43,597 nucleotides of DNA from positions 1 through 43,597 of the IMG/VR virus record IMGVR_UViG_2778261529_000002. The stretch is one strand, 5' to 3'. The DNA comes from a virus (taxonomy: Duplodnaviria > Heunggongvirae > Uroviricota > Caudoviricetes). Position 1 is the first letter of the stretch; every line of letters starts with the position of its first letter. Under the pieces are notes generated by a model. The model was not told where the DNA came from. It did not search any database and saw nothing but the letters and a program-made list of their open reading frames with translations. The translations under genes were made by a program, and so were the position numbers. Positions 3,343-3,859 of the stretch are shown piece by piece.

Positions 3343-3798
3343 TCAGTAACGCGATGTACTCACCAAACTCGCAAGGCGAATGCCTGAAGCGGCGCGTGGC
3401 TCAGTTACGATCCAGCATTTCAATTTCCTGAGCATCAAGTACAAGCTCCAGCTTACGCATACCGGATGATGCTTGCTTGGCTCTCTGATCGGCTTTGCGC
3501 TCTGCTGATGATTTAGCCATTCTGCTTTTCCTGCATTAGGAGAAAGACAATCATGGCGGCGCGGATACTTCCGGTATCTTTTTACGCGATATTCCCCATC
3601 CAGAGCACATACAAGAAGAGATCCATCAACAGGAGTGAGTGATGAATCGACCACCAGCAATGCACCCTGCAATATTCCCTCACGATGATGGCTACCAGCT
3701 GCCCTCAAGAAGTAGGTCGCTGAAGGATGTCTAATTATCTGCTGATCAAGAGAAATACGGCTCTCAGCATAATCCGCCGCAGGAGAAGGGAAGCCCAT
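3343..3798 (-). CDS. UmuD-prime-like (peptidase S24 / LexA-family) protein lacking the N-terminal tail; C-terminal half diverges from UmuD, possibly truncated or fused
   Basis: N-terminus MGFPSPAADY..HPSATYF matches UmuD from its RecA-cleavage site (Cys24-Gly25) onward; in-frame stop 4 codons upstream of ATG; AAGAGG SD; homology lost after about residue 95. Confidence 0.5.
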   Translation of the reverse strand: MGFPSPAADYAESRISLDQQIIRHPSATYFLRAAGSHHREGILQGALLVVDSSLTPVDGSLLVCALDGEYRVKRYRKYPRRHDCLSPNAGKAEWLNHQQSAKPIREPSKHHPVCVSWSLYLMLRKLKCWIVTEPRAASGIRLASLVSTSRY

Positions 3799-3816
3799 AA
3801 TACTCGCCTCTTAATG

Positions 3817-3859
3817 CTGTGTATATATACAGTATATGTTGAAGCTATATATTTTTGAA
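3817..3859 (-). promoter_or_regulatory. SOS-type promoter: LexA box CTGTATATATACACAG overlapping a -10 (TATACT) with -35 TTCAAA at 17-bp spacing
   Basis: Exact CTGT-N8-ACAG palindrome at 3817-3832, 19 nt upstream of the UmuD-prime-like start codon. Confidence 0.65.

Follow-up and report, generated by a model that had tools for sequence, protein, structure and literature searches.

What does the leftward open reading frame (ORF) at 3798-3343 represent: a LexA-controlled gene for a UmuD-like protein with a divergent C-terminus, as a preliminary description of this DNA proposed, or the remains of something already known? The window, that is, the whole stretch of 43,597 nucleotides analysed here (IMG/VR record IMGVR_UViG_2778261529_000002), is a complete mosaic prophage at argW. 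One end carries torI; the other carries a gene for a tyrosine integrase (42440-43597) that corresponds to the intS flanking argW in strain 13C1065T. The prophage adjoins an oligosaccharide MFS transporter gene. In its early region it resembles HK446 and Sf6, and the gene complement includes a cI-type S24 repressor (10073-10705), a DnaB-like helicase, Rad52-family, SSB and anti-RecBCD genes, and baseplate genes of the contractile-tail type. The answer that we favour, and regard as very probably correct, is that the 5' two-thirds of a P1-type humD cassette have been left behind in this lambdoid prophage and that the 151-aa ORF is a pseudogene.

Two features of the prophage at large may be recorded here. 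The torI end (window 1-1248 and 1250-1780) abuts the transporter gene together with a fragment of a DUF4942 gene, and elsewhere the same prophage end abuts dsdC, so the chromosomal flank at argW varies between strains. Genes for tRNA-Asn(GTT) and tRNA-Thr(TGT) are located at 16424-16579 (plus strand), in the late-regulatory region, and a search of the whole window against Rfam at the gathering threshold detected nothing beyond these two.

The affiliation of the ORF itself can be established in several ways. Its product begins MGFPSPAADY, 19 nt downstream of the LexA box, and the crystallised UmuD' (1umu) begins GFPSPAADY, which bears out the proposal that the protein is 'pre-truncated', starting at the position where UmuD is cleaved; that is, it begins at the equivalent of UmuD Gly25 with the (M/V)GFPSPA sequence of the HumD family and has no cleavable pro-peptide. 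Residues 1-82 match positions 8-89 of the 116 in the Pfam Peptidase_S24 profile (PF00717), and the PHROGs match is annotated "UmuD-like protein". The NCBIfam equivalog profile for HumD (NF051876) scores 139.5 bits over its positions 1-95 of 129, compared with 219.8 bits over positions 1-129 for the intact gene, so that the window ORF does not extend through the C-terminal segment of the full-length profile. In comparisons with solved structures, residues 2-79 align with residues 1-79 of UmuD' (25-103 of UmuD) and nothing aligns beyond, whereas the intact relative aligns with the UmuD' structure over residues 2-118. The preliminary description, which had put the S24 core at about 75 residues and the dissimilar tail at 55, was right that the tail is unlike UmuD but misjudged its length: the match covers residues 1-79 or 1-82, depending on the comparison, and the tail comprises about 70. 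No UmuC-like protein is encoded downstream, and a scan of ten larger ORFs in the remainder of the window gave none either, in agreement with the earlier view that a umuC partner is lacking.

A LexA box, a pre-cleaved product and the absence of umuC are precisely the published defining properties of humD, and the gene is thus of the already described P1 humD type, which the preliminary description missed; the element is of a known kind. HumD is made already 'cleaved' and works with the UmuC of the host. The P1 protein has been described as a homologue of UmuD' that is functional and promotes SOS mutagenesis (McLenigan et al., 1999, J Bacteriol 181:7005, as cited in PMC4713147 and PMC11541004), humD is a LexA-regulated SOS gene (PMC9603915), and the P1 record (GenBank AF234173) states that HumD "functionally complements E. 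coli UmuD'" and marks a LexA site that precedes the initiation codon by 19 nt. Codons 1-80 of the window ORF are 96% identical in DNA sequence to an intact humD of 129 codons, and the protein that they encode is approximately 91% identical to P1 HumD. The differences from the intact humD, 10 synonymous and 2 non-synonymous (M31L and D35G), mostly reflect divergence while the gene was still intact and are no gauge of present selection. Within these 80 codons there is no further disabling mutation.

What, then, happened beyond codon 80? Compared with the intact humD locus, the window is 98.4% identical over 4935-3560, and all similarity is lost after codons 80-82; the junction can be placed at codons 79-82, and beyond it, to the right, the sequence corresponds to the 3' terminus of a NinX-family gene, which is here read in the wrong frame. 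The two sequences share the microhomology GATACC.GA...TCC at the join. About 35 nt past the junction, at 3520, is the ATG of a gene of the phrog_536 family, again in a frame different from that of humD; PHROGs labels this family 'transcriptional regulator', its C-terminus carries a CxxC...CxC motif, and the gene is intact in strain X14-3 (TGT in place of the stop, 112 codons) and in many other prophages. The idea of a diverged C-terminal domain, which the earlier label of a C-terminally divergent UmuD-like gene might suggest, has to be abandoned, the tail being an out-of-frame 3' fragment of NinX followed by the next gene. The features of the locus are compiled in the table.

Features of the humD remnant and its surroundings (positions in the window)
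Feature	Position	Strand	Description
Third terminator-like site	2029-2044	-	GCTGCATCAATGCGGC + TTTTTA; just upstream of torI
Second terminator-like site	2467-2482	-	GCCGCCTGATGGCGGT + TTTTTA; after the 55-aa ORF 2641-2474
First intrinsic-terminator-like site	2661-2680	-	GAACTCGCTACGGCGAGTTT + TGTTTT
DUF2513 gene	2725-3153	-	First intact ORF downstream of the putative LexA-controlled promoter
Second pseudogene, phrog_536 family	3182-3520	-	112 codons; in-frame TGA at 3403-3401 (Cys40 -> stop)
Unrelated tail, residues 81-151 and stop	3343-3558	-	Out-of-frame NinX 3' end, spacer, next gene
Recombination junction, humD / 3' end of NinX-family gene	3553-3565	-	Microhomology
humD-homologous coding remnant	3559-3798	-	Codons 1-80, MGFPSPAADY...RKYPR
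Shine-Dalgarno sequence AAGAGG	3807-3812	-	Read from the sequence; 8 nt before the ATG at 3798
LexA operator (predicted)	3815-3834	-	20-mer TACTGTATATATACACAGCA; CTGT-N8-ACAG core at 3817-3832
Sigma-70-like promoter	3831-3859	-	-35 TTCAAA (3859-3854), 17-nt spacer, -10 TATACT (3836-3831)
Candidate sRNA	~4214-4126	-	~85 nt; fold energy -33.4 kcal/mol, z-score -5.15
Tentative sRNA promoter	4248-4220		TTGATG-17-TAATCT; weak -10
Small ORF, 27-aa hydrophobic peptide	4461-4544	+	MVNLLFKIVPPMFAIIKAIIEYVNQRP; Shine-Dalgarno sequence at 4449-4454
Terminator-like site after the small ORF	4558-4582		

The course of events that best accounts for this arrangement is an illegitimate, microhomology-assisted recombination between humD, at codon ~80, and the 3' end of a NinX-family gene. 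What survives of the cassette would then be its operator, promoter and ribosome-binding site with the first 80 codons, and the product, if made, would consist of HumD residues 1-80 and about 70 out-of-frame residues. The last 49 codons, which would have been removed in this event, include the block VFGVIT..INDARSGEFDDCPV that is conserved in all six intact HumD proteins compared (WP_000506720.1, from a plasmid, and those of P1, N15 (gp26), HK140, HK639 and phiKO2 (gp23)) and corresponds to the last strands of UmuD'; the equivalent of UmuD residues ~104-139 is missing. Since the junction falls at codons 79-82 and what follows is read out of frame, the 151-aa ORF is a pseudogene, a truncated and presumably inactive copy of a P1-type humD. 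The choice between an intact gene and a pseudogene, for which an alignment had been suggested, is settled by the DNA comparisons, in which the homology ends at codons 80-82. Because of the truncation, any ability to substitute for UmuD' would be expected to have been lost. In four near-identical genomes, the RefSeq annotation (PGAP) also treats both ORFs as pseudogenes, the humD ORF as 'HumD family / S24 peptidase, incomplete, missing C-terminus' and the phrog_536 ORF with an 'internal stop'.

Could the retention of catalytic residues still speak for a working protein? The window ORF does contain both residues of the S24 dyad, Ser36 and Lys73, the former within the motif AGSHH, so the preliminary description was correct in suggesting that the serine is retained. 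The serine position is, however, occupied by Thr in N15, HK140 and phiKO2, and the lysine position by Met in HK639. Since the dyad is not conserved even among intact HumD proteins, catalysis does not appear to be a property of the family, and the presence of Ser36 and Lys73 says little and is no evidence of function; the variability is in keeping with a protein for which self-cleavage is never required. Where the three intact P1-type genes in the comparison encode Asp just before the serine, the window has Gly, a substitution (D35G) that cannot be interpreted in either direction.

The regulatory region presents a different picture. The core 16-mer of the box, CTGTATATATACACAG (minus strand, 3817-3832), is the only occurrence of the pattern CTGT-N8-ACAG in the 43.6-kb window, but by itself this pattern does no better than chance (0.58 occurrences expected, and at least one in 44 of 100 shuffled sequences). 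The full 20-mer, TACTGTATATATACACAGCA (3834-3815), departs from the consensus TACTGTATATATATACAGTA at just two positions (18 of 20 agree), and none of the 100 shuffles produced a site with three or fewer mismatches. The predicted site combines the CTGT-N8-ACAG palindrome, an AT-rich spacer and overlap with a promoter, as is characteristic of SOS boxes, and in its match to the consensus and its location in the promoter region it also has the operator expected of the HumD family. Its position is equivalent to that of the annotated LexA site 5' of P1 humD (humD/lxr) and to those of the LexA-like boxes upstream of N15 gp26, HK639 and phiKO2 gp23. The promoter-like pair matches at 9 of 12 positions and its -10 element overlaps the box; a scan of the window for such promoters is not enriched (5 sites found, 5.9 expected), so the argument for this promoter comes from its overlap with the operator and from the identity of the TTCAAA-17-TATACT arrangement in the intact-humD loci. 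Two internal substitutions in the box of the window spare the CTGT and ACAG half-sites, both of which are kept in the four genomes that retain the whole region. The LexA box that the preliminary description placed at 3817-3832, overlying a -10/-35 pair, is real. A high-quality LexA operator stands intact, together with a promoter and a Shine-Dalgarno sequence, ahead of a disrupted gene. LexA probably continues to repress the promoter, with activation upon DNA damage, and the promoter or the HumD fragment may still see some residual use.

Where would a transcript from such a promoter lead? Past the humD remnant, the gene order is the nonsense-disrupted pseudogene, the DUF2513 gene, two small genes of unknown function and torI (1978-1778). 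The DUF2513 gene starts 28 nt after the stop of the preceding pseudogene and has no evident promoter of its own, and no convincing terminator was found between the LexA-box promoter and position 2680. Further on come the three terminator-like sites listed in the table and a weaker one at 2097-2079 (minus strand), also before torI. The leftward read-through envisaged in the preliminary description is plausible as far as the DUF2513 gene, but with at least three terminator-like sites in the way, a transcript that is not antiterminated would be unlikely to reach torI. If LexA represses this promoter, transcripts induced by DNA damage would start near 3824, run across both pseudogenes and the undamaged DUF2513 gene, and for the most part end at 2680-2661, short of torI. 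A defence role for the downstream genes was also considered and dismissed, since PADLOC detected no defence or anti-defence matches among them, and Pfam and PHROGs assign them to DUF2513 or to unknown function.

The distribution of the junction among E. coli genomes is informative with regard to its age. A 121-nt junction-spanning probe identifies the join in 140 of 5,426 complete genomes, yet the whole 1.1-kb region is matched in only four, at 99.0-99.9%, and a further two retain the ORF starting roughly at the LexA box, so that the humD start and LexA-box region are known to be kept in only 6 of the 140. The lambda-site prophages of X14-3 and NCTC9100 have humD codons ~47-82 only, with no start codon, promoter or operator, and the NCTC9100 remnant contains an in-frame TAA in addition. 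The downstream module is present in 673 genomes. The scar is old and has spread with the downstream module while the humD side has been eroding, which is how a pseudogene behaves. The two genomes that retain the ORF only from near the LexA box have degraded copies with a mobile element precisely at the box: in E. coli O68:H12 97.3 (L007) it is abutted by a group II intron (ltrA), and in E. coli PK6 (L008) ISKox3, of the ISL3 family, interrupts it, in both cases at the position corresponding to window 3820-3833. The AT-rich palindrome is possibly a preferred site of insertion.

These data bear on the alternatives that have to be considered. The likeliest of these is that humD is indeed dead but its LexA-controlled promoter has been exapted, that is, kept by selection for the repressor-independent, damage-inducible expression, in the lysogen, of the DUF2513 gene and perhaps of genes beyond. 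In the window, as in the three further genomes with the whole region, neither operator nor promoter is damaged, the two substitutions in the box leave the half-sites untouched, and nothing that looks like a convincing terminator separates the promoter from the DUF2513 gene, which has no obvious promoter of its own. This scenario has to contend with the fact that the module occurs in 673 genomes and the LexA-box region is known from only 6 of the 140 junction-bearing ones, which implies that the module is generally expressed independently of this promoter. Moreover, X14-3 and NCTC9100 have neither box nor promoter, the intron or IS disrupts the promoter or the box in two genomes in which the module is still annotated, and the terminators would end a transcript well before torI. 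Exaptation of the promoter is possible but unsupported, and we consider it unlikely. We are equally doubtful about its more specific form, a free-standing SOS switch that would induce DUF2513 as a moron independently of cI, with low-level read-through toward the excisionase gene torI; if this were true, it would be a case of a prophage promoter outliving its gene and being re-used.

Far less probable is a functional chimera, in which the 151-aa protein would work, for example, as a dominant-negative partner of host UmuD/UmuD' or as a neofunctionalised S24 fragment. The 151 open codons preceded by a good Shine-Dalgarno sequence and the conservation of the N-terminal 80 residues would be compatible with this proposal, but the tail is out of frame and the true frames of that DNA are conserved elsewhere, the most conserved C-terminal motif and the last third of the UmuD' fold are gone, and other carriers of the junction lack the start codon or have a stop. 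An artefact of sequencing or assembly, either a frameshift or a chimeric join in a single assembly, is the least credible explanation of all, considering that independent complete genomes (four full-length matches at 99.0-99.9%) show the identical arrangement and that the junction itself recurs in 140 genomes. We therefore return to the decayed P1-type humD cassette as the preferred explanation. The finding itself matters very little, being a decayed copy of a characterised phage gene that standard annotation already treats as a pseudogene; it has a modest value as an example of decay at a mosaic junction, with one scar common to 140 genomes and a variably eroded 5' side.

The neighbourhood of the remnant is probably more interesting than the remnant itself. 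The unannotated gap of 800 nt upstream of humD contains a small ORF and a candidate sRNA (4126-4582) that together make up a candidate conserved type I toxin-antitoxin pair of the dinQ/agrB kind. The combination of a small hydrophobic peptide with a divergent sRNA complementary to the 5' UTR is what such a pair would be expected to show, with toxicity of the peptide being a prediction. Nineteen base pairs (19 bp) can form between the 5' end of the sRNA, AGUCGCCAGAUACUUAUGG, and 4368-4386 in the 5' UTR of the ORF; leaving aside the gene of the sRNA itself, no other site in the window offers the seed, AGUCGCCAGAUAC, so good a duplex (-38.6 kcal/mol, against -27.9 for the next). The peptide is under purifying selection (pN/pS 0.07-0.27), the stems of the sRNA show compensatory changes, and seed and target covary between two haplotypes. 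The module is found in 115 of 5,426 E. coli genomes, mostly on plasmids of ~100-115 kb beside an intact humD, and, by a two-copy motif scan, in 41 IMG/VR contigs, Kluyvera, Enterobacter and one MAG labelled Bacillota. In about half of 31 distinct loci (L013, L021-L023, L028, L029, L037, L039, L043, L052 and L061 among those with the arrangement) there is a second, tandem paralogue of the peptide, M[AQ]LLLL[FI][LF]KLA[HP]PV[AT]AIITALLGY[FLW]KDR, located just upstream of the conserved ORF and absent from the window.

As for the affiliation of the pair, the best Rfam match of the sRNA is AgrB (RF02891), at 27.6 bits, below the gathering score of 40. When a covariance model derived from 17 variants is run with filters off, K-12 agrB comes out on top, followed by agrA (22.2 and 21.2 bits), and with the default filters the model detects nothing in the K-12 locus; membership in AgrB was accordingly rejected, and the sRNA is best called AgrB-like. 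The N-terminus of the peptide resembles DqlB, but at E<=10 there is no match to DinQ or DqlB (NCBIfam) or to Pfam, and BLASTN of the locus against K-12 dinQ/agrAB returns only a 15-nt loop match. There is no LexA box near the putative promoter of the small ORF, and no description of the 27-aa peptide family was found in the literature. The dinQ-like family and the DqlB-agrB addiction module have been published (PMC5066626, PMC12365149), and the present pair, if real, would be a divergent branch of a family for which a role in plasmid addiction has recently been demonstrated (PMC12365149). It accompanies humD on phage-plasmids and on prophages of several enterobacterial genera.

How does the remnant compare with the known systems? 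With P1 humD it has in common the MGFPSPAADY N-terminus, the absence of a pro-peptide and of a umuC partner, a LexA box that precedes the start codon by 34-37 nt and a DNA identity of 85% over window 3834-3558, the homology stopping at the LexA box; it differs in that P1 HumD is an intact protein of 129 aa, of which the window keeps codons 1-80 only, and in that the P1 gene resides in the context lxr-humD-phd-doc as opposed to the end of a lambdoid prophage. A divergent, P1-like lxr upstream was considered and rejected, as the 80-aa plus-strand ORF at 3889-4131 has no similarity to P1 Lxr. In the same region, 3924-4047 (minus strand) is 76% similar to the upfO / late-promoter LPhot region of P1, and a 46-aa ORF at 4128-3988 (minus strand) has the same length as P1 upfO and no obvious ribosome-binding site.

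The nearest intact relative is WP_000506720.1, a "HumD family translesion DNA polymerase" of 129 aa, 91.5% identical to P1 HumD and found on E. coli plasmids of ~100-115 kb and in phage Cyrano; its locus shares with the window the ~1.4 kb of upstream DNA over which the 98.4% identity was measured. On one of these plasmids, pMB3825A_2 (L002, ~114 kb, 3830-6641), apbC and metG, an unusual cargo for a plasmid or phage-plasmid, are annotated directly downstream of the intact humD. The intact genes, which belong to phage-plasmids and to lambdoid or linear-plasmid phages (N15 gp26, phiKO2 gp23, HK639, HK140 and WP_000506720.1), all start with (M/V)GFPSPA, have in most cases a LexA box 32-62 nt upstream, and retain the C-terminal segment that the window has lost. 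To E. coli UmuD/UmuD' (PDB 1umu, 1i4v, 1ay9, 8gmt), finally, the remnant is related at the level of the fold family, over UmuD 25-103; its product starts at the site of RecA-mediated cleavage, Cys24/Gly25, and, unlike UmuD, is without the N-terminal pro-peptide of 24 residues, and the active-site motif reads GDSM in UmuD, ADSHH in the intact P1-type HumD and AGSHH in the window.
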